A stretch of DNA of 64,000 nucleotides from Bacteroidales bacterium (GTDB lineage Bacteria > Bacteroidota > Bacteroidia > Bacteroidales > UBA1402), in NCBI GenBank assembly GCA_028709215.1, contig JAQVXI010000001.1, positions 60,537 through 124,536 on the forward strand, given 5' to 3'. The notes beneath the pieces were generated by a model that was not told where the DNA came from, ran no database searches, and was given only the letters and a program-made list of their open reading frames with translations. Positions within the stretch are counted from its first letter, which is position 1. Each line of letters starts with the position of its first letter. This document shows, piece by piece, positions 46,198-60,785 of this stretch. Both the position numbers and the translations under genes were made by a program.

Positions 46198-46272
46198 GAG
46201 CTGTTAGCTCAGTTGGTTTAGAGCACTACCTTGACAGGGTAGGGGTCACTGGTTCGAATCCAGTACAGCTCA
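46198..46272 (+). tRNA. tRNA-Val (anticodon GAC)
   Basis: Hand-folded cloverleaf: acceptor GAGCTGT/ACAGCTC, D arm GCTC-AGTTGGTTTA-GAGC, anticodon arm CTACC-TTGACAG-GGTAG, variable loop GGGTC, T arm ACTGG-TTCGAAT-CCAGT, discriminator A. CCA is not encoded. Confidence 0.93.
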
Positions 46273-49493: not shown

Positions 49494-51242
49494 TTAAGGT
49501 TTATAAAATTTGGATGTTTGTTCTCCTTTAATGGTACGGGTTCGCAATAGGTAAAAGCCGGTAGGAAGGCGGTCAATGCGCAAGTGTTCCGGATCAGAAG
49601 CCTGCAAAAGCCTTTTTCCCGTTAGGTCGTACACTTCTGCCTGAGTGGGTCTTGTGTTTTGTGTTATGGTAGTCAACTGCGTTAGGGAGTCGTTTGATGA
49701 AGTCGGTGTTTCGATGGTTGCTGTGTTGCCTAGAAAGGTGACCATTAAATGATTGTTGAGGCTGTCCCGGGTGTAAAACGGTGTTTTTATGCCGTTCTCT
49801 TCAAAATACAGACGCATTTCGTAGCTGCCATCTGCAAGGCCTTTGTTTAATGAGATCGTTTTTGAATAGCGTTGATAGCCGTATCCCGGCAATAGACTAC
49901 CTACGGATTGTGCAAAGAGGGAAGTAACGAGCAGATTATCCTTAAATAGTCCCAAACCCAACGAACCGCCAAAGGTATGCAGACCGTAATTAAGAAATCC
50001 ATACTGAACCGTTATGTATCCTTCTTTTCGGAGGTTGCTGATGTAATTGGTATCACTGCGAATCCCCTCATTATACATCCCGATGTAGTATTCCGGGTGC
50101 ACGGGGCTGTTGTCCGGTTGTTGAATGCCAATAAGGGCCGTGTGGTTGTAGTAATAGCCGCCATCGCCTCCACCCACTCCGGTTGCTGTTGGATCCAAGG
50201 CATTCATTTGGTAATATCCATTGGCGTAACCACCCCAACCCCAATTGATGTGAAGGAATCCGTTTGAATCGAACCCGTCCATAACAAAAGCATGTCCAAC
50301 GCCTGAATCCGCAATTCCCGAATAGAGAATTGGACGTTTGTTTCTTAATTCCTGCAGGATGCGTTCGGTCCAATCGTCGGAATCAAAATGCATCCGGTGT
50401 ATTAGATGTAGAGCATCGTCGTAGTTGAAGTGATTCAATAGTCCCAAACCGGCGTTGCGTACCGATGCCCCGCTTCCGCCTTGCGATGCGATGCCGTAGT
50501 TCATTTCGGCAGCGACGCCACAATGGTACATCAATTTGGCCACTGCAGCCTGTTGGATTGCGGTTTGAGTACCGTTGTAATGGTTCTGCATGTTTGCCCA
50601 ATCGTAAAAAGTTCCGTCAAAGATTTCCGATATCGTTGTATCGGTTTCGGTAATGGTTAGGGAATACGATTTTTGACCGACGCCCTCGGGAGGCCATTCG
50701 TAATACTTCATGATTTGTGCCATAGCGGTGGCGACACAGCCGGTTGCACAACGTTCCTGATACGTGCTGCTGATCGGGCAATCGTTGTTGTAGGGTGCAA
50801 GCTGGTTCCATTGAATGGCTTCCATGACCGGAAGAATTGAATCGCTTGCATTCCAAGTGAAGGCCTCGGACGCGTGGTCACCGGCTCGGTAACCGAGTAG
50901 CCAGTGGCTGAGATTTTCCGGCAGTGCTTCCTCCGGAATACGACCGTTTGTGCTATATCCAAGAATTTCAGGAAGGGCGTCATCCGAACGAACCAATACA
51001 AAGCCGTCTGAGTCACCGAAATTGTACGCATAACAAACCTCAACGGCATCGATGGTGTCGTTCGTTCGGGTGATGAGTTTGGGGAAGGTCTGCTTTAATG
51101 CGCTTGCACTCCTGCGTGCATCCGGACGCAATTGTGAATAAAAGCGCTGTGCAATCGCTTGAGCGATATCTGAAGACCTGTTGGCAGGTTGGGCCGCAGT
51201 GGGGATCAGAGCCAGAAGAAAGAGGATGTGTTTTATCTTCAT
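49494..51242 (-). CDS. C10-family (streptopain-like) cysteine protease with N-terminal Spi-like prodomain and T9SS C-terminal sorting domain
   Basis: 582-aa ORF with a signal peptide. Prodomain pattern YAYNFGDSDGFVLVRSDDALPEILGYS. Catalytic Cys motif GCVATAMAQIMKYY and catalytic His motif VGHAFVMDGF. The last ~70 aa (AEVYDLTGKRLL...LPTGFYLLRTRT...) look like a Por/T9SS CTD. Confidence 0.85.
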   Translation of the reverse strand: MKIKHILFLLALIPTAAQPANRSSDIAQAIAQRFYSQLRPDARRSASALKQTFPKLITRTNDTIDAVEVCYAYNFGDSDGFVLVRSDDALPEILGYSTNGRIPEEALPENLSHWLLGYRAGDHASEAFTWNASDSILPVMEAIQWNQLAPYNNDCPISSTYQERCATGCVATAMAQIMKYYEWPPEGVGQKSYSLTITETDTTISEIFDGTFYDWANMQNHYNGTQTAIQQAAVAKLMYHCGVAAEMNYGIASQGGSGASVRNAGLGLLNHFNYDDALHLIHRMHFDSDDWTERILQELRNKRPILYSGIADSGVGHAFVMDGFDSNGFLHINWGWGGYANGYYQMNALDPTATGVGGGDGGYYYNHTALIGIQQPDNSPVHPEYYIGMYNEGIRSDTNYISNLRKEGYITVQYGFLNYGLHTFGGSLGLGLFKDNLLVTSLFAQSVGSLLPGYGYQRYSKTISLNKGLADGSYEMRLYFEENGIKTPFYTRDSLNNHLMVTFLGNTATIETPTSSNDSLTQLTTITQNTRPTQAEVYDLTGKRLLQASDPEHLRIDRLPTGFYLLRTRTIKGEQTSKFYKP

Positions 51243-51316
51243 TTGTAATGGTATTCTCTTGTGTAGAACAATTGAAAACTATGCTTCGTTCATCAGGTAA
51301 TCCCGAAAAAAAAACC

Positions 51317-51324
51317 TACCTTTG
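51317..51324 (+). promoter_or_regulatory. -7 promoter motif TACCTTTG upstream of hpt
   Basis: Exact TAnnTTTG match ending 38 nt before ATG 51363. Confidence 0.45.
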
Positions 51325-51362
51325 CGCACTCATTTCAGTAGGAACAAAAAAAGAGTACGGAT

Positions 51363-51905
51363 ATGGAAAGCGTCCGGGTCAAAGATAAGGATTTTGGCAT
51401 CTTATTGTCAAAAGAAAGAATTAAAGAAGCCGTCAATCGTGTGGCAGCAAGCATTAATCAGGAATTGAAGGATGAGAATCCAATGTTCCTGGCCGTATTG
51501 AACGGTTCGTTCATGTTTGCAGCCGACTTGATGAAGGCCATCACCATTCCCTGTGAAATCAGTTTTGTGAAATTGGCTTCCTATGAAGGAATGCAGAGTG
51601 GTGGTAAAGTAAAAGAGGTTTTTGGTTTGTCGGAACGCATTGACGGACGAACGGTGATTATTTTGGAAGATATCGTCGACTCAGGACGTACCATGCAGCA
51701 GTTGCTGGATTCGTTGTCTTCACGCAATCCCAAAGAAATTCGTATCGCTACCTTTTTGTTTAAGCCGGAGGCGTTGATTTGCCCCATTAAGCTGGATTAC
51801 GTTGCGTTTGAGATTCCGAATGATTTTGTCGTAGGTTACGGTTTGGATTACGATGGTTACGGACGCAATCTGGATGCCGTGTATTCGTTGATCGAATCGA
51901 ATTAA
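51363..51905 (+). CDS. hpt: Hypoxanthine phosphoribosyltransferase
   Basis: 180-aa ORF. PRPP-binding motif VIILEDIVDSGRT. Confidence 0.9.
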   Translation: MESVRVKDKDFGILLSKERIKEAVNRVAASINQELKDENPMFLAVLNGSFMFAADLMKAITIPCEISFVKLASYEGMQSGGKVKEVFGLSERIDGRTVIILEDIVDSGRTMQQLLDSLSSRNPKEIRIATFLFKPEALICPIKLDYVAFEIPNDFVVGYGLDYDGYGRNLDAVYSLIESN

Positions 51906-52541: not shown

Positions 52542-53708
52542 ATGGCAGAAAGTAATTTTGTCGATTATGTCAAGATTTATTGCCGGTCGGGTAATGGAGG
52601 ACGAGGTTCCACACATTACCACCGGGAAAAATATATTCCCAAAGGCGGCCCGGATGGAGGCGACGGAGGTCACGGCGGACACGTTATTTTACGTGCCGAT
52701 CCCAACTATTGGACACTGATTCACCTTCGGTATGCACGTCACGTGTTTGCGGAACATGGTGAAAGTGGGAGTGGCGCACGCAAAACCGGAAGATCCGGTT
52801 CGGATGTCTATATTGATGTGCCTGTAGGAACGGTGGTTTACGATGCAGAAACCGGTGAGTTTTTGTGTGATGTTAGTGAACCCGGTCAAGAGGTGATCTT
52901 GTTGAAAGGTGGTAGAGGCGGTCTTGGGAATTGGAACTTCCGTACGGCAACCAATCAAACACCCCGTTTTTCACAACCGGGTGAACCGCTCGAGGAGCGT
53001 ACCATCATCATGGAGTTGAAACTTCTGGCCGATGTAGGTTTGGTTGGTTTTCCCAATGCAGGCAAATCGACGCTGTTGTCGGTTGTCTCTGCGGCAAAAC
53101 CCAAAATCGCCGATTATGCCTTTACAACACTCGAACCCAATTTGGGTATTGTCTCGTATCGTGACGGGCGTTCGTTTGTAATGGCAGACATTCCCGGCAT
53201 CATTGAGGGTGCTTCTCAGGGTAAAGGTCTGGGTTTGCGTTTTCTGCGTCATATTGAACGCAATGCGGTGTTATTATTTATGGTGCCGGCCGATAGTGAC
53301 GATATTCACAACGAATACAAGGTGCTGCTCCATGAATTGGCTGAATACAATCCGGAGCTGCTGGATAAACAGCGTATTCTCGCGATCAGCAAATCCGATA
53401 TGCTGGATGAGGAGTTGATGGCAGAGATTCGACTCGATTTGCCGGAGATTCCGGTTGTGTTCATCTCTTCGGTGGTCGGTACGGGTTTGACGGAATTAAA
53501 GGATCGATTGTGGGAGGTATTGAACGATGCTTCCAACCAACCGACAGCCATCACACATCGGGATATGATTATCCCGGTTCGCACGATTCCGGAAGATGAA
53601 TTGAACGATGATGAGGACTTGATGCCCAAAACGGAGGAATACATGGATGAGGAAGAGGTTGTGGATCCGTTTGATTACGAAGGAGACTTGGAAGATTTTC
53701 AAGAATAG
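52542..53708 (+). CDS. obg: GTPase Obg/CgtA
   Basis: The ORF-track ORF starts at 52479, overlapping adk. I prefer ATG 52542 ([13 protein letters not shown]...). Glycine-rich Obg fold ([14 protein letters not shown]), G1 [10 protein letters not shown]3 ADIPGII, and an acidic C-terminal tail. Confidence 0.9.
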
Positions 53709-53744
53709 TCTAAATTACATATAGGACGTTTGGCGTCCAATGGG

Positions 53745-53783
53745 TGGATTTGCTTCTTTTTAGGGAGTAAATCCATTTTTTTT
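53745..53783 (+). terminator. Intrinsic terminator after obg
   Basis: TGGATTT...AAATCCA stem (53745-53751 / 53769-53775) with extra inner pairs (CTTC/GGAG), followed by TTTTTTTT. Confidence 0.7.
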
Positions 53784-53787
53784 ATAA

Positions 53788-53795
53788 TAACTTTG
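53788..53795 (+). promoter_or_regulatory. -7 promoter motif TAACTTTG upstream of the MACPF gene
   Basis: Exact TAnnTTTG match immediately after the obg terminator and 93 nt before ATG 53889. Confidence 0.4.
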
Positions 53796-53888
53796 TGGTA
53801 TCGAAAAATCAGATTTCAATAGATGTCAGTGAGGAACGATCGTTGAATAAATGTGAGTAATGTAAAAACATGAATTCTAATTAGTAAA

Positions 53889-55340
53889 TTGATGAGAAAG
53901 ATTTTAATGATTTTCTTTTGTGTCCCATTTATGTTTTCATGTGTTGAGGTCGATTTGTTGGATTCATCTGAGCTAAATCCCGCTATTGAAGCTGTGGATA
54001 CAGTAACAACTGTTCATTCGAGTTCAGATGGAGCAGGTTTTTATAGTTTTCTTGGATTCGGGTATGATGCAACAAAAACTTATTTTAATGGATCAAAAAA
54101 CACGAGGCGAATGGTTGTTGATGTGAATCGTATTGCATGCTCAAATCCATGTCGAATTACAATCAATAAATCTCAAGGTCAATTTTCAAATTATGAAGTT
54201 GGGACAACGTGTACTGATCTGCTTAAATCATTATCTTCTGATTTTGATGTTCATGTAAATTATAGAGATGCTTCGTATGGATGTAAGTTCGAAGGTGAGA
54301 TAGAATCTTCATATGGTTCTTCAAAACTTATCTCTACCAGGAATTCTTATGCTTTTTATGAAAGGCTTTTTTTAAAGAAGTCGATTACACTGAATTATAC
54401 TGTAGACTCATTAGTAAACTATCTGACGACGAACTTTAAAGAGGATATTGCCGTTTTGACTGGTGATCAAATAGTATCATTATATGGTACACATGTGCTA
54501 ACTAGTATTAAGATAGGAGGGAAAGTTAAGATTAATTACAAGTCTACTGTCTTATCATCAAATAAGACTGAGACTGTAACAGCGGGTCTTTCAGCAAGTA
54601 TTGCGAAAGTGATATCAGGTATTTCAGCGAATATTATTAGCTCTTCATCACTAGCAGAAAATAATTCAAAAGAGTATTTGCATTTTAAATTAATCGGAGG
54701 AGATAGTCTGTTGCATGTTGAGGAGGCATATGATATGTCTAAGATTTCTAATCCTATGATTAATCTATCTTCTTGGATATCAACTATTGATGAGAATCCA
54801 GTATTGATTGGATCTGGGGAAATTTTAATTCCAATTTATGAATTCATAACTGATCCACAAAAAAAAATAGAAGTAAGAAATTCGTTCAATTCTTATTTCG
54901 AAACTAGTAGAATTTATGATGTAGATCCTCTTTACCATTATCACAAAACGAATGGTCATCATTTTTTTACAACTGATTGGACAGAGCTAGGCAATGGTAT
55001 GTCGGGTTGGAATTACGAAGGTGTTTCCTGTTTTGTGTTGCCTGTTGAATCTACATTTGGCACTTCTGGCATTCCTTTATATAGATATTATAAGCCTAAT
55101 ACAGGAGATCATTATTTGACAACCAATTGGGGTGAATTAGGAAATGGGGCCTCTGGGTATCGATTTGAAAAAGTACAATGCAATGTATTGCCTAATCAAT
55201 TGCAAGGATCAGTTCCTTTATATAGATATTGGTCAAATAATAAACACGATCATTTTTATACCCTTTCGAAAAGAGATTATAACGATTATGCTTATGAGTG
55301 TATTGTAGGCTATGTTTTTGATCCTTCTGGAGTGAACTAG
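53889..55340 (+). CDS. Lipoprotein with MACPF (membrane attack complex/perforin) domain and three C-terminal DUF5648-like repeats; candidate BSAP-type pore-forming toxin
   Basis: 483-aa ORF. Lipobox FMFSC (Cys18). LGFGYD entry motif. YGTHVLTSIKIGG (aa 199-211) fits the MACPF signature (Y/W)G(T/S)H(F/Y)x6GG except for Val at the F/Y position. Amphipathic TVTAGLSASIAKVISGISANIISSSS follows. Three ~40-aa repeats occupy aa 346-479. G+C is clearly lower than in the flanks. Confidence 0.8.
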   Translation: MMRKILMIFFCVPFMFSCVEVDLLDSSELNPAIEAVDTVTTVHSSSDGAGFYSFLGFGYDATKTYFNGSKNTRRMVVDVNRIACSNPCRITINKSQGQFSNYEVGTTCTDLLKSLSSDFDVHVNYRDASYGCKFEGEIESSYGSSKLISTRNSYAFYERLFLKKSITLNYTVDSLVNYLTTNFKEDIAVLTGDQIVSLYGTHVLTSIKIGGKVKINYKSTVLSSNKTETVTAGLSASIAKVISGISANIISSSSLAENNSKEYLHFKLIGGDSLLHVEEAYDMSKISNPMINLSSWISTIDENPVLIGSGEILIPIYEFITDPQKKIEVRNSFNSYFETSRIYDVDPLYHYHKTNGHHFFTTDWTELGNGMSGWNYEGVSCFVLPVESTFGTSGIPLYRYYKPNTGDHYLTTNWGELGNGASGYRFEKVQCNVLPNQLQGSVPLYRYWSNNKHDHFYTLSKRDYNDYAYECIVGYVFDPSGVN

Positions 55341-55365
55341 GTAGACTCGAATAATAATATGAATT

Positions 55366-55397
55366 GGGGGTTCAATCGTTCTACGAATTGAACCCCC
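55366..55397. terminator. 11-bp hairpin shared by the convergent MACPF gene and carB
   Basis: GGGGGTTCAAT-(10-nt loop)-ATTGAACCCCC followed by GTTTGTTTT on the plus strand. It lies 8 nt from the carB stop. Confidence 0.7.
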
Positions 55398-55404
55398 GTT
55401 TGTT

Positions 55405-58400
55405 TTAGAATTCCTGCCAGCTTCTGATCTGAATATCTTCCAGGCTCATGTTGCAGAATGCCTCAATAAAAGCACTGGCTAGGCGTGAGTTGGTAATCAA
55501 TGGGATGTTGTAGTCGATGGCTGCACGGCGTATTTTGTACCCGTTGGTCAATTCCCGTTTGGACATATTCTTAGGAATGTTTACGATGAGATCAAATGCG
55601 TGATTGGCAATCAAATCCAGGATGTTGTTTTCATCCTCGTTTTCATCCGGCCAGCTGACCTTTTTGGCTTGAACGCCATTTTCTTCCAGGAATTTGCAGG
55701 TACCACCGGTTGCATATACGGTATATCCCTTATCCTGCAAAAGGCGGGCGCTGTCCAATAAGTCCACTTTTGATTTGACGGGTCCCGAAGAAAGCATGAT
55801 GCCTTTTTCTTTGGAGGGAATGTCAAATCCGGTTGAAATCATGGCCGAAAGAAGGGCTTCGTTAAAATCGCTTCCGATGCAACCCACTTCACCGGTCGAT
55901 GACATGTCTACACCCAATACCGGATCTGCCTTGTGAAGGCGGGAAAATGAAAATTGTGAGGCTTTTACACCGATGCGTTCCAAATCGTCAATGGAATTGT
56001 CCGGTTTTTCAAACGGTGCGTCCAGCATGATGCGGGTTGCGGTATCGATGAAGTTTTGTTTGAGCACCTTGGATACAAACGGGAAACTTCTGGATGCCCG
56101 TAGGTTGCATTCAATAACTTTGACTTCGTTGTTTCGTGCCAAAAATTGAATGTTGAACGGTCCGCTGATGTTGAGTTCTTTTGCGATTTTGTAACTGATC
56201 TTTTTGATGCGTCTTGCCGTCTCAAAATAGATCTTCTGTACGGGAAAGACCAACGTTGCGTCACCGGAGTGCACCCCGGCAAATTCGATGTGTTCCGAAA
56301 GTGCGTATTGAACCACTTCACCGTTTTGAGCCACCGCATCAAACTCGATTTCCTTGGCGTTTTGCAAAAAGCGGGATACAACTACCGGATATTCCTTGGA
56401 AACTTTGCTGGCTTTTTCCAAGAATTCTTTCAATTCTTCGTCGTTGTAACAGACATTCATTGCTGCACCGGAGAGTACGTAAGAAGGACGAACCAGAACG
56501 GGGAAACCGACTTGTTCAATGAAACGGTCGATGTCCTCCAAGCTGCTTAATTCCTTCCACTCCGGTTGGTCTATGCCCAGTTGATCCAACATGCTTGAGA
56601 ATTTATGTCGGTTCTCTGCACGGTCAATGGAAATGGGAGAGGTTCCCAAAATGGGTATGCTTTGACGATGCAATTTCATGGCCAAATTGTTGGGGATTTG
56701 TCCGCCCACGGATACAATTACGCCTCTGGCTTGTTCCAGGTCTTCAACATCCAACACGCGTTCAAAGGTGAGCTCATCAAAGTACAAGCGGTCACACATG
56801 TCGTAGTCTGTTGACACGGTTTCCGGATTGTAATTGATCATGATGGATTTGTACCCCAGCTTGCGAGCCGTTTGAATGGCATTTACGCTGCACCAGTCGA
56901 ATTCGACGGAACTTCCGATGCGGTAGGCTCCCGATCCGAGAACGATTACGGATTTTTCGTTTTTGTAATAGGGTACATCGTGTTCGCTGCCGTCGTAGGT
57001 CATGTACAGGTAATTGGTCAGTTCCGGATGTTCCGAAGCAACGGTATGGATGCGTTTGACGCTGGGAAGAACCTGAAGACGTTTGCGTTTACTGCGTACG
57101 CGCAACAATTCTTTTTCCATGTTGGTTTTTGGATCTTCAACCAAACGTGCAATCTGAAAATCGGAAAAGCCCAATCTTTTTGCTTCCCAAAGCGTATCCG
57201 AATCCAGATCTTCAATGCTTGAAAAACCTTTTAGTTGGAGCGAGAAGTCATAGATGTTTTTGAGTTTGCCCAGGAACCACGGGTCGATTTTGGTCAAATC
57301 ATGAATGCGTTCGATCGTATATTCTTGTTCAAACGCTTTGGCGATGGCATACATACGCAGGTCGGTCGGTTTGGAGAGTTCCTGATCCAGGTTCTCAAAA
57401 ACGAGTCCGTCGTTGGCTACAAAACCGTGCATGCCCTGACCGATCATGCGTAAACCCTTTTGAATGATTTCTTCAAACGTTTTACCGATCGACATGATTT
57501 CTCCCACCGATTTCATGGAAGAGCCAATTTCACGCGATACACCAAAGAATTTGGTTAAATCCCAACGGGGGATTTTACAAATCATGTAATCCAATTGGGG
57601 TGCCTTGTAAGCTGAATTGGTGGTTCCCATCTCGCCAATTTCATCCAGTCCGTAACCCAAAGCCAATTTGGCTGCCACAAAGGCAAGGGGGTAACCGGTT
57701 GCTTTGGATGCCAATGCGGAGGAACGGCTTAATCGAGCATTGACTTCGATGACACGATAGTCGTCGGTTTCAGAGTTGAACGCAAACTGAATGTTACACT
57801 CTCCTACAATGCCCAAATGGCGTACACACGTGGTGGATACATTGACCAATAAGTCGATTTCGGTTTGATCGAGCGAACAGGTTGGTGCTACGACGATGGA
57901 TTCACCGGTGTGGATGCCTAGCGGGTCGAAGTTTTCCATGTTTGCCACCGTAAAGCAATGGTCATTTTTGTCGCGGATGACTTCAAACTCAATTTCCTTC
58001 CATCCTTTCAGCGATTCTTCAACCAGAACTTGAGGTGCGTAAGCAAATGAATTCTTGACTAAAACCAAAAATTCGTCCATGTTTTCTGCAATGCCGCTAC
58101 CCATTCCGCCCAAGACGTAAGCGGAGCGAACCATTACCGGGAATCCGATGGTTTCAGCTGCTTGAATGGCTTCTTTTAGGTTGTTGCAGGCCTGGCTTAC
58201 CGGGGTTTTAATGTCTTTTTCGGATAGTTTTTTAACAAACAGATCCCGGTCTTCTGTGTACATGATGGCCTCGACGGATGTGCCCAAAACACGTACGCCG
58301 TACTTTTCTAACGTACCCGCCTGGTATAGTTCTGTACCGCAGTTCAGTGCGGTTTGACCACCAAAAGCAAGAAAGATACCGTCCGGTTTTTCTTTTTTGA

Positions 58401-58626
58401 TGACTTCTTCCACGAAGTAAGCAGAAATCGGGAGGAAATACACAACATCGGCAATGCCTTCGGATGTTTGAATGGTTGCGATGTTGGGGTTGATCAGAAC
58501 GGATTGAATGCCTTCTTCACGGAGCGCTTTTAGTGCTTGTGAACCGGAATAGTCGAATTCACCGGCTTGTCCGATTTTTAATGCACCCGATCCTAAGACC
58601 AGGACTTTTTTAATGTCAGTCTGCAT
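55405..58626 (-). CDS. carB: Carbamoyl-phosphate synthase, large subunit
   Basis: 1073-aa ORF with duplicated ATP-grasp halves and a C-terminal MGS-like domain. The N-terminus KKVLVLGSGALKIGQAGEFDYSGSQA is diagnostic. Confidence 0.93.
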   Translation of the reverse strand: MQTDIKKVLVLGSGALKIGQAGEFDYSGSQALKALREEGIQSVLINPNIATIQTSEGIADVVYFLPISAYFVEEVIKKEKPDGIFLAFGGQTALNCGTELYQAGTLEKYGVRVLGTSVEAIMYTEDRDLFVKKLSEKDIKTPVSQACNNLKEAIQAAETIGFPVMVRSAYVLGGMGSGIAENMDEFLVLVKNSFAYAPQVLVEESLKGWKEIEFEVIRDKNDHCFTVANMENFDPLGIHTGESIVVAPTCSLDQTEIDLLVNVSTTCVRHLGIVGECNIQFAFNSETDDYRVIEVNARLSRSSALASKATGYPLAFVAAKLALGYGLDEIGEMGTTNSAYKAPQLDYMICKIPRWDLTKFFGVSREIGSSMKSVGEIMSIGKTFEEIIQKGLRMIGQGMHGFVANDGLVFENLDQELSKPTDLRMYAIAKAFEQEYTIERIHDLTKIDPWFLGKLKNIYDFSLQLKGFSSIEDLDSDTLWEAKRLGFSDFQIARLVEDPKTNMEKELLRVRSKRKRLQVLPSVKRIHTVASEHPELTNYLYMTYDGSEHDVPYYKNEKSVIVLGSGAYRIGSSVEFDWCSVNAIQTARKLGYKSIMINYNPETVSTDYDMCDRLYFDELTFERVLDVEDLEQARGVIVSVGGQIPNNLAMKLHRQSIPILGTSPISIDRAENRHKFSSMLDQLGIDQPEWKELSSLEDIDRFIEQVGFPVLVRPSYVLSGAAMNVCYNDEELKEFLEKASKVSKEYPVVVSRFLQNAKEIEFDAVAQNGEVVQYALSEHIEFAGVHSGDATLVFPVQKIYFETARRIKKISYKIAKELNISGPFNIQFLARNNEVKVIECNLRASRSFPFVSKVLKQNFIDTATRIMLDAPFEKPDNSIDDLERIGVKASQFSFSRLHKADPVLGVDMSSTGEVGCIGSDFNEALLSAMISTGFDIPSKEKGIMLSSGPVKSKVDLLDSARLLQDKGYTVYATGGTCKFLEENGVQAKKVSWPDENEDENNILDLIANHAFDLIVNIPKNMSKRELTNGYKIRRAAIDYNIPLITNSRLASAFIEAFCNMSLEDIQIRSWQEF

Positions 58627-58744: not shown

Positions 58745-59494
58745 ATGGAGTTTACAAAAGAGCTACTGGATGAATGGGTGGAAAAAATAAATGTTCCGGA
58801 ATACGTAGAATCGGATCCGGTGCAGTTTCCACGTCGGTTTTCCCGTCAGGAAGATGTTGAAATTGTGGCCTTTTTGGCAGCGATCCTTGCATGGGGCAAG
58901 CGATCCCTTATACTCAAATCAGCGGAAGGGATGTTTGAACGCATGGGGGACAGTCCATATGAATATATTTTGTCGGAGGGCTATTTGAATTTGGGTACAA
59001 AGAATATCCATCGCACTTTTTTTGAGCGGGACCTGCTGTATTTTTGTAAGGGTTTTGCGTATATTTATCAGAAATATGGCCATTTGGAACTTCTTTTTGC
59101 CAATCGTGCAACGGTGTGGGAGGGGATGGATCTGTTTCGAGACGAAATGGCAAAGGCCAACGAGGGATTGTATAGTAAACACATCAGTCATGCCGGTGCC
59201 GGGTCCGCTTGTAAGCGCCTGAATTTGGCCTTGAAATGGTTGGTTCGCAGCAAGGGGCCGGTGGATCTGGGTGTCTGGACTCGATTGGATACAGCACAGC
59301 TCATGATTCCCTTGGATGTACACGTCGGGCGGGTATCCAGAGCGCTGGGTTTGCTACAACGCAGGCAAAATGATCGAAAAGCGGTTGAAGAGCTGACTGC
59401 GAAATTGCGGGGTTTTGACCCGTCTGATCCGGTTCGCTATGATTTTGCGTTGTTTGGGTTGGGGCTGGCTGGGATTACGGGGGGTAAAAAATAA
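58745..59494 (+). CDS. Conserved hypothetical protein (TIGR02757/DUF2400-like)
   Basis: 249-aa ORF. The family assignment is from memory of the N-terminal pattern (YVESDPVQFPRRF...EIVAFLAAILAWGKR); not verified. Confidence 0.45.
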   Translation: MEFTKELLDEWVEKINVPEYVESDPVQFPRRFSRQEDVEIVAFLAAILAWGKRSLILKSAEGMFERMGDSPYEYILSEGYLNLGTKNIHRTFFERDLLYFCKGFAYIYQKYGHLELLFANRATVWEGMDLFRDEMAKANEGLYSKHISHAGAGSACKRLNLALKWLVRSKGPVDLGVWTRLDTAQLMIPLDVHVGRVSRALGLLQRRQNDRKAVEELTAKLRGFDPSDPVRYDFALFGLGLAGITGGKK

Positions 59495-59515
59495 AAGCCA
59501 CCTTGCGGTGGCCTT
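59486..59515 (-). terminator. Minus-strand-oriented intrinsic terminator (second of a tandem pair)
   Basis: Minus strand: AAGGCCACC-GCAA-GGTGGCTTT followed by TATTTTTT. On the plus strand the hairpin is followed by an A-run instead. Confidence 0.45.
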
Positions 59516-59544
59516 AAAAAAAAGAAGGTTGTCTCACGACAACC
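59516..59544 (-). terminator. Minus-strand-oriented intrinsic terminator (first of a tandem pair)
   Basis: Minus strand: GGTTGTC-GTGA-GACAACC followed by TTCTTTTTTTT. Confidence 0.45.
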
Positions 59545-59587
59545 AATCTTCCTTAACCTTAAATCTAATACCATGAAAAACACAGTG

Positions 59588-59595
59588 CAAATATA
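59588..59595 (-). promoter_or_regulatory. Orphan -7 promoter motif (TATATTTG on the minus strand) with no downstream gene
   Basis: Plus-strand CAAATATA = minus-strand TATATTTG. It lies about 45 nt upstream of the first minus-strand terminator. Both flanking genes are on the plus strand. Confidence 0.35.
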
Positions 59596-59671
59596 CGGGC
59601 GGTTTTTGGAATAAAAAAATATATGAACCAAAAAATATGTTTTTTAACATGTTTTTGCAGAAAAATGGAAT

Positions 59672-60340
59672 ATGAAACAGGTTTTGACCTTTTTAAACGA
59701 ATTGCAGAAGAATAATAGTAAGGAGTGGTTTGATGCGCATCGGTCTCATTATGAGTCTGTTCGGCTGACGTTTTCAAGCTTTGTGCAGCAACTGATTGAC
59801 GGACTTTCCGTGTTGGATCCATCCGTTCGGGGATTGCGTGTGCAAGATTGTATGTTTCGCTTGAATCGGGATCTTCGATTTTCTCCGGATAAGCGACCGT
59901 ATAAAACGCATATGAGTGCTTTTATCGCTCCCTTTGGACGAAAGTCCGGCTATGCAGGCTATTATTTTCATTTAGAGGCAAGTGACGGTCGTTATTTGAT
60001 GGGACATCAGTTGGATTCAGGAATATACGGACCGGATCCAGCGATTTTGAAAAGTGTTCGAGAAGCCATTTTGATGGATGGGGCGGGTTTTGAAGCGGTT
60101 GTTCACAAGGCTGGCGGATTCCAATTAGAAACCGAAGCTTCGTTAAAGCGCGTGCCGAGAGGTTTTCCGGTCGATAGTCCATGGGCGGAATACCTAAAAA
60201 TGCGTCACTTTATTCTAAATAAGCCGTTGAGGGAGGAAGCGGTGTTGGCGGATGATTTGTTGGAGCAGACGATGACTTCCTTTGCAAAAACGGTGGAATT
60301 CAACAACTGGTTAAATAAAGCAGTGGCGTATGCACGATGA
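59672..60340 (+). CDS. DUF2461 (TIGR02453) family protein
   Basis: 222-aa ORF. Family pattern NNSKEWFDAH...FRLNRDLRFSPDKRPYKTH. Confidence 0.7.
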   Translation: MKQVLTFLNELQKNNSKEWFDAHRSHYESVRLTFSSFVQQLIDGLSVLDPSVRGLRVQDCMFRLNRDLRFSPDKRPYKTHMSAFIAPFGRKSGYAGYYFHLEASDGRYLMGHQLDSGIYGPDPAILKSVREAILMDGAGFEAVVHKAGGFQLETEASLKRVPRGFPVDSPWAEYLKMRHFILNKPLREEAVLADDLLEQTMTSFAKTVEFNNWLNKAVAYAR

Positions 60341-60386: not shown

Positions 60387-60388
60387 TC

Positions 60389-60785
60389 GGTGGAGATGGA
60401 GGGAGTCGAACCCTCGTCCAAACAGTAAACCAATACGCTTTCTACATGCTTATCTTCGCCTAAATTTTCGAGTCGAAACCGGACCGAAGCCACCTATTGC
60501 GACCTTATTCCATTTATTTCAGAAACAACCCTGGACCTGCTGCTTCCTATTCCCGATATTACTGCACCACCGATTCCATTCAGCTTCAGGACGTGAGCTT
60601 GGGGTGATGTGACGTCCCCGCAACTGTTGCAGGGATTAAGCTTAAATCTACTGTGATTCGATTAAGCAGCGAGAGCGTAATTGTTTTCGCCAGTTATGGT
60701 TCTGGTTCTGATATTAAAGTGCGTATAACCAAAGCACTGCATGCTTACATACCTGTTCTAACCGCTGTCAAAACCAAACATCCCC
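60389..60785 (-). ncRNA. ssrA: tmRNA (transfer-messenger RNA)
   Basis: The minus-strand 5' end GGGGATGTTTGGTTTTGACAGCGG pairs with the 3' end CATCTCC-A-CC, including the G3:U pair. T arm CGAGGGTTCGACTCCCTCC. Tag reading frame GGC GAA AAC AAT TAC GCT CTC GCT GCT TAA = GENNYALAA at 60691-60662. About 397 nt. The terminal A of CCA is not encoded. Confidence 0.93.

Follow-up and report, generated by a model that had tools for sequence, protein, structure and literature searches.

How does a single gene of conspicuously foreign composition come to lie between two housekeeping genes, and what would it do there? The question is raised by a 64,000-nucleotide (nt) stretch of the genome of an uncultured Bacteroidales bacterium (contig JAQVXI010000001.1 of assembly GCA_028709215.1, positions 60,537 to 124,536; hereafter the window, by whose numbering positions are given unless another locus is named), in which one gene of low guanine-plus-cytosine (GC) content separates obg from carB. 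A sequence-only reading had seen in it an inserted gene for a MACPF pore-forming lipoprotein, a candidate toxin resembling the BSAPs of Bacteroidales. We found that strains of this species carry, within the same boundaries, either the MACPF gene or a glycosyltransferase gene, and that an orthologous transferase gene adjoins the closest homologue of the MACPF gene in an unrelated genome. The explanation that we lean towards, with modest confidence, is a glycan-targeted antibacterial toxin of the BSAP type, to which sensitivity or immunity would be set by the transferase that alternates with it in the slot.

Two alternative genes in the obg-carB slot

The gene is the single open reading frame (ORF) between obg and carB, running from 53889 or 53892 to 55340 on the forward strand. 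It encodes 483 amino acids (aa) from a TTG start, or 482 aa from the ATG at 53892 that the public annotation uses, where the identical protein (P0001) is called 'MAC/perforin domain-containing protein [Bacteroidales bacterium]'. In 300-nt windows the GC content was 0.30-0.37 across 53700-55350 as against 0.45-0.50 in both flanks. The 1590-bp island as a whole had a GC content of 0.335, compared with 0.461 +/- 0.018 in all other 1.5-kb windows (z = -7.2), and the GC content at third codon positions (GC3) of the MACPF gene, 0.236, was the lowest (mean of the 53 ORFs of the window, 0.487 +/- 0.047). The MACPF gene is the strongest compositional outlier of the window. These profiles agree with the hand counts of the sequence-only reading, which had placed the gene below both flanks in GC, and a composition so strongly foreign supports its claim of horizontal acquisition; a terminator scan likewise recovered the two hairpins that it had marked, the obg terminator and the one at 55366-55397. 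Elsewhere in the window there was no second MACPF or DUF5648 gene, nor any PF11316 gene.

The public data hold several strains of the species. The identical protein lies at the same junction in two metagenome-assembled genomes (MAGs; GCA_050252875.1 and GCA_028681535.1) and in two Logan assemblies, and a search of the protein collection with Obg returned variants 97-99% identical, whose contigs revealed the alleles of the slot. Ten of the 16 same-species contigs carry the MACPF-DUF5648 allele (L001-L004, L089, L092-L094, L097 and L098). The remaining six (L087, L088, L090, L091, L095 and L096) carry instead a gene for a 293-aa protein that matches Pfam PF11316, 'putative rhamnosyl transferase', with 94.9 bits. 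By blastn the flanking DNA of contigs of both allele types is about 99.6% identical, and neither an empty slot nor a contig with both genes occurred among the 16. The locus is an allelic swap. With the junctions aligned across strains, the expected strain variability of the gene was confirmed, but the notion of a plain insertion had to be given up: the alternative allele holds the PF11316 gene at the same boundaries, and no empty site was seen.

These boundaries are sharp. Homology between the alleles stops after ...GAAAAATCAGAT (window position 53814) and restarts exactly at the carB stop codon (55405), and the two alleles themselves have no common sequence at all. The DNA at 53709-53814 showed no mismatch in 15 of the 16 strain contigs and a single one in L098. 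It contains TAACTTTG, a match to TAnnTTTG, the -7 promoter consensus of Bacteroidetes as known from Bacteroides promoters. Because this box stands in the DNA shared by both allele types (at 7247 in L087), it is a candidate common promoter for whichever gene fills the slot. At the other end, the corresponding position of the glycosyltransferase allele is taken by another hairpin, ATGGATTCCCTTC...GAAGGGAATCCAT, which likewise faces carB. Since the hairpin at 55366-55397 lies within the cassette, each allele supplies its own terminator for carB.

How was the exchange made? Neither direct nor inverted repeats of note mark the edges at 53815 and 55404, the cassette has no integrase or transposase, its only gene being the MACPF gene, and no tRNA lies near the slot, the closest being at 46198. 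An integrase-borne island or an insertion element was therefore rejected, and the exchange is most simply explained by homologous recombination in the flanking DNA. A mosaic contig fits such an exchange: across hpt-adk-obg (50500 to about 53700) L097 diverges by about 5%, and from there onward by less than 0.3%, so that its tract boundary coincides with the toxin slot. Other mosaics lie elsewhere, with a divergent patch only inside obg in L098 (52500-53100) and one in hpt in L001 and L004 (window 50900-51900).

The two alleles also differ in how well they match their host. The GC3 of the transferase gene is 0.456, near the 0.48-0.52 of host genes and far from the 0.236 of the toxin gene, a hint, though no proof, that the transferase allele has occupied the slot for longer. 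The MACPF gene did not enter the species very recently, because its diversity is like that of the flanks, with 12 polymorphic sites in 1449 nt compared with 23 in the 3222 nt of carB. Its ORF is intact in all ten carrier contigs.

The host itself belongs to a deep-branching lineage of Bacteroidales that has not been cultured. Its genes on either side of the slot have their best matches in Bacteroidales, and the Obg of the closest relative outside the species is 85% identical. Most of 80 Bacteroidota loci conserve the hpt-adk-obg block, and in none of the 80 does carB lie downstream of obg. A scan of species representatives anchored on Obg, meant to score presence of the insert, was abandoned: the relatives were 63-77% identical and none had carB downstream. 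In the sister lineages (L182-L187, Obg 83-85% identical) neither slot allele is present. There, obg is followed in one lineage directly by DUF2400, which overlaps the end of obg, and in another by a gene for a 722-aa protein without Pfam match and then an aldose epimerase gene. Among the lineages compared, carB stands downstream of obg only in the species of the window, and the 3' side of obg is a recurrent rearrangement point. Polarisation of the slot by outgroup was also tried and set aside, the sister lineages having neither allele and P0114 lying in an unrelated context. P0114 itself (L188 8001-9395) is a 464-aa Obg-like protein in which the MMR_HSR1/FeoB_N GTPase region matched twice and which has no hpt-adk context; possibly the G domain of an Obg is duplicated here, or else the gene is an artefact of assembly or gene calling.

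Table 1. Positions of the slot, its alleles and the parts of the encoded lipoprotein (CDS, coding sequence; AF2, AlphaFold2; TMH, transmembrane hairpin)
Feature	Position	Strand	Basis and remarks
obg (GTPase ObgE), left flank; last gene of the hpt-adk-obg block	52542-53708	+	ORF list
obg terminator, hairpin 53742-53778 plus T run	53742-53783	+	Terminator scan; DNA common to both alleles
TAACTTTG, match to Bacteroidetes -7 box	53788-53795	+	Regex search; 19 nt upstream of breakpoint
Swapped cassette, allele A, 1590 bp, GC 0.335	53815-55404	.	blastn breakpoints 53814 and 55405
Alternative cassette, 953 bp, with PF11316 glycosyltransferase gene	L087 7274-8226		blastn, boundary sequences
CDS, MACPF-DUF5648 lipoprotein, 482 aa	53892-55340 (including stop)	+	ORF list, public annotation; identical to P0001
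Predicted signal peptide and lipobox, MRKILMIFFCVPFMFS followed by C, ending at Cys17	53892-53942	+	Family alignment
Disordered N-terminal tether, residues 18-48	53943-54035	+	pLDDT below 50
MACPF pore-forming domain, residues about 49-338	54036-54905	+	Pfam, AF2 model, Foldseek
Predicted TMH1 helical cluster, residues about 105-145	54204-54326	+	Model; analogy with MACPF fold
MACPF signature YGTHVLTSIKIGG, residues 198-210	54483-54521	+	Read from sequence
Predicted TMH2 cluster, residues about 222-257, SSNKTETVTAGLSASIAKVISGISANIISSSSL	54555-54662	+	Model
C-terminal DUF5648 domain, three beta-alpha blades, residues about 339-478	54906-55325	+	PF18885, model
GC-rich hairpin, 12 pairs, between the convergent MACPF gene and carB	55366-55397	.	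Terminator scan; within cassette
carB, right flank	55405-58626	-	ORF list; allele homology resumes exactly at stop codon

Architecture and fold of the encoded lipoprotein

What kind of protein does the low-GC allele encode? Two Pfam families matched above their gathering cutoffs, PF01823 (MACPF; 49.6 bits against 21.5) at residues 144-336 and PF18885 (DUF5648; 85.7 bits against 25) at residues 351-469. A sequence search of the PDB returned perforin-1 as its sole match, with an E-value of 0.37, so a fold search was needed to confirm the MACPF assignment. We built an AlphaFold2 model from an alignment of 31 family sequences. Its mean predicted local distance difference test score (pLDDT) was 81.3 and its predicted template modelling score (pTM) 0.78, with residues 5-48 below a pLDDT of 50 and hence disordered. 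Foldseek matched the model to GNIP1Aa (6FBM; E 7e-17), Plu-MACPF (2QP2; E 2e-16, probability 1.00), BT_3439 (3KK7; E 7e-16, probability 1.00) and Mpf2Ba1 (E about 1e-15), and next after these bacterial MACPFs to perforin, MPEG-1, C9 and pleurotolysin B, each with probability 1.00. Sequence and fold together confirm the MACPF protein that had been recognised from two short motifs. Both motifs lie exactly where they had been read and are conserved across the 31 homologues. One is LGFGYD, at residues 54-59. The other is the signature YGTHV-LTSIKI-GG, which fits (Y/W)-G-(T/S)-H-(F/Y)-x6-G-G except for Val in place of Phe or Tyr. Within the family, Y198, G199, T200, H201, V202 and G209 of the signature are invariant or nearly so; the unusual Val202 is itself nearly invariant.

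The expected pore-forming elements are visible in the model. Helices at 107-122 and 135-141 form one cluster and helices at 225-240 and 252-255 another, and the two clusters (107-141 and 225-255) flank long central strands at 151-167 and 205-220; as modelled, they are the expected TMH1 and TMH2. The amphipathic Ser/Ala/Ile stretch earlier noted after the signature coincides with the predicted TMH2 cluster. The C-terminal 140 residues consist of three PLYRY...HFYT units, each modelled as strand-strand-helix-strand, and this triple repeat, also seen in the sequence-only reading, proved to be the DUF5648 domain. Neither Pfam nor the model gave a BACON or other structured domain at the N-terminus. 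Three of the six amino-acid polymorphisms of the protein fall in DUF5648, namely T353M (codon 54948-54950) and H356P (54957-54959) in the first blade and G390R (55059-55061) between blades 1 and 2; the numbers are small. Besides the window, the T353/H356 variant was found only in L001-L004.

The protein is predicted to be lipidated and displayed on the cell surface. Cys17 is invariant across the 31 homologues and is preceded by Ser, Ala or Gly at -1. Acidic residues stand at +2, +4 and +7 after it (CVEVDLLD), as acidic residues follow the Cys family-wide, and these form a candidate lipoprotein export signal. The lipoprotein call, which is made on motifs only, agrees with the earlier one. BSAPs are surface-exposed lipoproteins in which both the export signal and the Cys that is lipidated lie in a disordered N-terminal region (Borgini et al., J Biol Chem 2025, PMC12853789). 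In that work, 214 Bacteroidota MACPF representatives were clustered by structure, and 103 of them fell into 'group 1', a class without structured N-terminal domain whose characterised members, BSAP-2, BSAP-3 and M068_0191, all target O-antigen glycans (PMC12853789). Assigned on these described features, the predicted protein is by architecture a group-1 BSAP, the commonest BSAP design. The earlier statement that its combination of features matches no described BSAP does not hold, as lipoprotein signal, MACPF and DUF5648 make up the largest BSAP class (PMC12853789).

The sole NCBIfam match was NF053771, 'BSAP5a family pore-forming toxin', with 51.7 bits against a cutoff of 500. Residues 42-341 align to model positions 62-378, the MACPF region, whereas the 549-position model has no counterpart in the protein for its C-terminal third. 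Membership of the BSAP5a family was rejected on this score, far below the cutoff and gained in the MACPF region only; a literature search found no paper on BSAP-5. BT_3439 and Plu-MACPF share the MACPF fold with our protein but have other C-terminal domains and a sequence identity of only 12-15%; the C-terminal part of BT_3439 consists of the D2/D3 domains of group 2 (PMC12853789). The same architecture as that of our protein is widespread in Bacteroidota at 24-44% identity (Mucilaginibacter, Pedobacter, Filimonas, Dysgonomonas, Paludibacter and Bacteroides congonensis), the last being the nearest named Bacteroides protein among the matches listed, at 26%. Some homologues about 35% identical adjoin tyrosine-integrase genes (P0007 in L180 and L181, and L099), and in L180 the MACPF-DUF5648 gene lies in a phage-like context, downstream of a gene for a 1211-aa protein and a DUF5675 gene. 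From the integrase-adjacent homologues it follows that part of the family travels on mobile elements.

The DUF5648 domain is also joined to many subtilases, C1A proteases, metalloproteases and CHAP domains. This distribution suits a carbohydrate-binding targeting module, and we regard the domain as a putative glycan-binding module that would confer receptor specificity. C-terminal domains set the receptor specificity of BSAPs, as shown for BSAP-1 (PMC12853789).

Must such a protein be directed against bacteria? It might instead be a surface MACPF lipoprotein with some other role, one that, for instance, acts on the membranes of eukaryotes such as protists, handles surface glycans, or is not lytic at all. 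GNIP1Aa and Mpf2Ba1 are insecticidal MACPF proteins, and the former is the top fold match. The presence of DUF5648 on so many secreted proteases and CHAP domains would also agree with a generic carbohydrate anchor, and for two other MACPF proteins, BT_3439 (PMC12853789) and BACUNI_00959 (PMC4999547), no antibacterial activity has been demonstrated. We nevertheless consider a non-antibacterial role unlikely. All functionally characterised proteins of exactly this architecture are antibacterial (PMC12853789), the pore-forming motifs are conserved, and BSAP loci typically show such an either/or polymorphism involving a surface-glycan gene.

A transferase gene beside the closest homologue

Is the pairing of toxin and transferase peculiar to this slot? 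The closest homologue, P0002 (MAG GCA_023251375.1, locus L005), is 44% identical to the MACPF protein overall, with the identity unevenly distributed: 60% in the C-terminal DUF5648 domain and 37% in the MACPF domain. In other relatives the identity of DUF5648 is only 27-43%. The P0002 gene adjoins a divergently oriented PF11316 gene whose product shares 64% identity with the transferase of the alternative slot allele in our species. The two lineages thus have in common a similar putative receptor-reading domain and orthologous transferases. The context in L005 is unrelated to the obg-carB junction, with a two-component system on one side of the pair and a Mg-chelatase-like gene on the other. 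In both places a low-GC single toxin gene is linked to an orthologous PF11316 transferase, but in L005 the two genes coexist as divergent neighbours whereas here they are mutually exclusive alleles. Both genes of L005 (4731-7283) are GC-poor, the transferase gene at 0.284 and the MACPF gene at 0.33 in a genome at 0.41, and the pair looks like a two-gene cassette acquired together. A further transferase, P0227, 58% identical, is encoded beside a Mg-chelatase fragment and a shikimate kinase gene, on a 2.5-kb contig without a MACPF gene.

Beyond this pair the surroundings of the family are more mixed. One relative, P0004, adjoins four glycosyltransferase genes. A Pfam scan of 130 neighbouring genes from 38 de-duplicated loci, which is descriptive only and had no matched control, found about a dozen glycosyltransferases of families 1, 2, 4, 6 and 8; SusC-like receptors, tandem MACPF paralogs and integrases were also common. 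A general linkage of PF11316 to the MACPF-DUF5648 family was considered and rejected, since it is confined to the closest homologue pair.

These observations are what we would expect if the protein were a glycan-targeted antibacterial toxin. The toxin gene would have been gained by horizontal transfer into a one-gene slot, where it is presumably served by the promoter in the shared intergenic DNA. Its product would be made as a lipoprotein lipidated at Cys17, be flipped to the surface by the acidic export signal, and from there probably pass onto outer-membrane vesicles. The DUF5648 propeller may then bind a surface glycan, be it lipopolysaccharide (LPS), lipooligosaccharide or another glycoconjugate, on competitors of the same or closely related species, upon which the MACPF domain would oligomerise and its two helical clusters unfurl into beta-hairpins, opening a pore in the outer membrane of the target. 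The PF11316 transferase would add the sugar that the toxin reads, so that strains carrying the transferase would be the targets and producers would be immune, their transferase gene having been displaced by the toxin gene. Read in this way, the locus is a one-gene version of a known BSAP theme, in which sensitivity to BSAP-2 tracks the set of O-antigen glycosyltransferases that a B. uniformis strain carries (Roelofs et al., mBio 2016, PMC4999547).

Several points weigh against this explanation. The transferase-toxin link rests on two lineages, and PF11316 homologues were found within 8 kb in none of 80 metagenome loci of more distant family members, as in none of 80 control loci. In the literature the sugar specificity of PF11316 is essentially uncharacterised. 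No diversifying selection was seen in the toxin gene, the ratio of nonsynonymous to synonymous polymorphisms being 6:6 compared with 14:25 in flanking genes (p = 0.50). BACUNI_00959, encoded by a MACPF gene next to an O-antigen locus, showed no antimicrobial activity (PMC4999547), and the receptor of BT_3439 is not known (PMC12853789). Unlike in published BSAP producers, no replacement-target gene is visible here. Finally, L005 holds a related toxin together with an orthologous transferase, which fits the published pattern of co-acquired resistance better and argues for the transferase as protection, as in the published precedent.

Might the transferase then protect? The protein could be a BSAP-type toxin and the transferase a resistance determinant that alters the glycan, as in the BSAP-2 and BSAP-3 cassettes. 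The two alleles would be complementary leftovers of, or partial imports from, a two-gene cassette such as that of L005, and strains with the transferase only would be resistant non-producers. The adjacent, divergent and GC-poor genes of L005 suggest joint acquisition, and published BSAP genes adjoin co-acquired genes that replace the target (PMC4999547, PMC13245386). Within our species the evidence runs the other way: none of the 16 contigs carries both genes, the alleles have no sequence in common, the producers have no transferase and would need another source of immunity, and the gap in GC3 between transferase and toxin genes argues that they were not recently acquired together. Overall, we think this account improbable. 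Neither direction, transferase as receptor-maker or transferase as protector, explains both genomes without an extra assumption.

The swap could also be coincidental. In this case the protein would still be a BSAP-type toxin, but its receptor and its immunity would be encoded elsewhere, and the slot would simply be a recombination hot spot 3' of obg, at which small accessory cassettes unrelated to one another change places. Gene content after obg indeed varies in every related lineage examined, the mosaics of L097 and L098 end at or near the slot, and PF11316 is absent near the 80 other family members. To set against this, a 64%-identical transferase adjoins the closest homologue in an unrelated genome, and the C-terminal domains of the two toxins are far more alike than their MACPF domains. 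Chance adjacency is unlikely, as PF11316 had no match in 1.4 Mb of control loci, and we give coincidence only a small chance of being right.

If the toxin is indeed glycan-targeted with the transferase as receptor-maker, a more specific proposal can be formulated, which we put forward tentatively as possible but doubtful. The toxin gene may have replaced an orphan, receptor-building transferase gene base for base, behind the same promoter, and so have brought immunity by displacement.

Place among known toxins and in the window

The protein may first be set beside the toxins with which it shares most. BSAP-2 (Bacteroides uniformis) and BSAP-3 (Phocaeicola vulgatus/dorei) likewise combine lipoprotein and export signals, a tether, a MACPF domain and a three-bladed DUF5648 C-terminal domain, and they too vary between strains of a species and are genomically tied to glycosyltransferase genes. 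They differ in setting. Here the toxin gene fills a one-gene slot between housekeeping genes rather than lying at the border of a multi-gene O-antigen/LPS locus, it has no replacement transferase beside it, and the host is uncultured and deep-branching; the comparison is made on the published descriptions. In published cases, BSAP genes adjoin genes that replace their target (PMC4999547), with which they were co-acquired (PMC4999547, PMC13245386), and the producers replace the target rather than delete it (PMC4999547).

BSAP-1 (Bacteroides fragilis) is a more distant parallel. It too is a surface MACPF lipoprotein, with specificity in its C-terminal domain and an oligomeric beta-barrel pore (PMC12853789; bioRxiv 2026.08.05.742979), which consists of 13 subunits (bioRxiv 2026.08.05.742979), and its producer and sensitive strains also differ at a locus adjoining the toxin gene. 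By contrast, its C-terminal domain is short and unstructured and binds an outer-membrane protein, whereas our protein has a DUF5648 propeller; and its N-terminal regulatory domain is cleaved by a protease of the fragipain family, whereas here only a disordered tether is evident.

A few other features of the window deserve mention. Upstream of hpt, at about 49494-51242 on the reverse strand, lies a Peptidase_C10 gene whose product is streptopain-like with an Inhibitor_I69 prodomain. Its length varies across same-species strains (582, 418, 341, 314 and 181 aa), and homology is interrupted at about 50566-50642 and about 50854-51094. With the toxin slot 3 kb away, this makes two strain-variable genes for secreted or surface proteins here. 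Any connection with the toxin is speculation; the surface cysteine protease that activates BSAP-1 belongs to a different family, C11. Rfam matches in the window comprise a Bacteroidetes small RNA (sRNA) of the FopS family at 59514-59583 on the reverse strand (78.7 bits), a transfer-messenger RNA at 60388-60785 on the reverse strand (141 bits) and one tRNA at 46198-46272 on the forward strand. The FopS sRNA partly explains a small GC dip at 59400-59850.

What would the locus mean for its family? BSAPs shape which strains of a Bacteroidales species coexist, and this locus extends BSAP-type antagonism, as predicted here, to an uncultured Bacteroidales lineage far from the human-gut Bacteroides models. 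It also amounts to a clean natural experiment, in which near-identical backgrounds carry either the toxin or the transferase allele, with the same pair linked in a second lineage. For BSAPs of the DUF5648 class, the literature that we searched gives no defined sugar epitope or single transferase, whole O-antigen loci being implicated. Were the link between transferase and toxin coincidental, the protein would be one more predicted BSAP. If instead sensitivity depends on the transferase, the enzyme would directly indicate which glycan is bound by DUF5648, a module also present on many secreted proteases and on GH70 enzymes. And if immunity by displacement were true, a single recombination event would convert a sensitive strain into an immune producer without a replacement target, a departure from the 'replaced rather than deleted' rule of BSAP-1 and BSAP-2. 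The PF11316 transferase and DUF5648 would then be a co-evolving pair of receptor-maker and receptor-reader that recurs across lineages, and the first defined glycosyltransferase-epitope pair for the DUF5648 domain.

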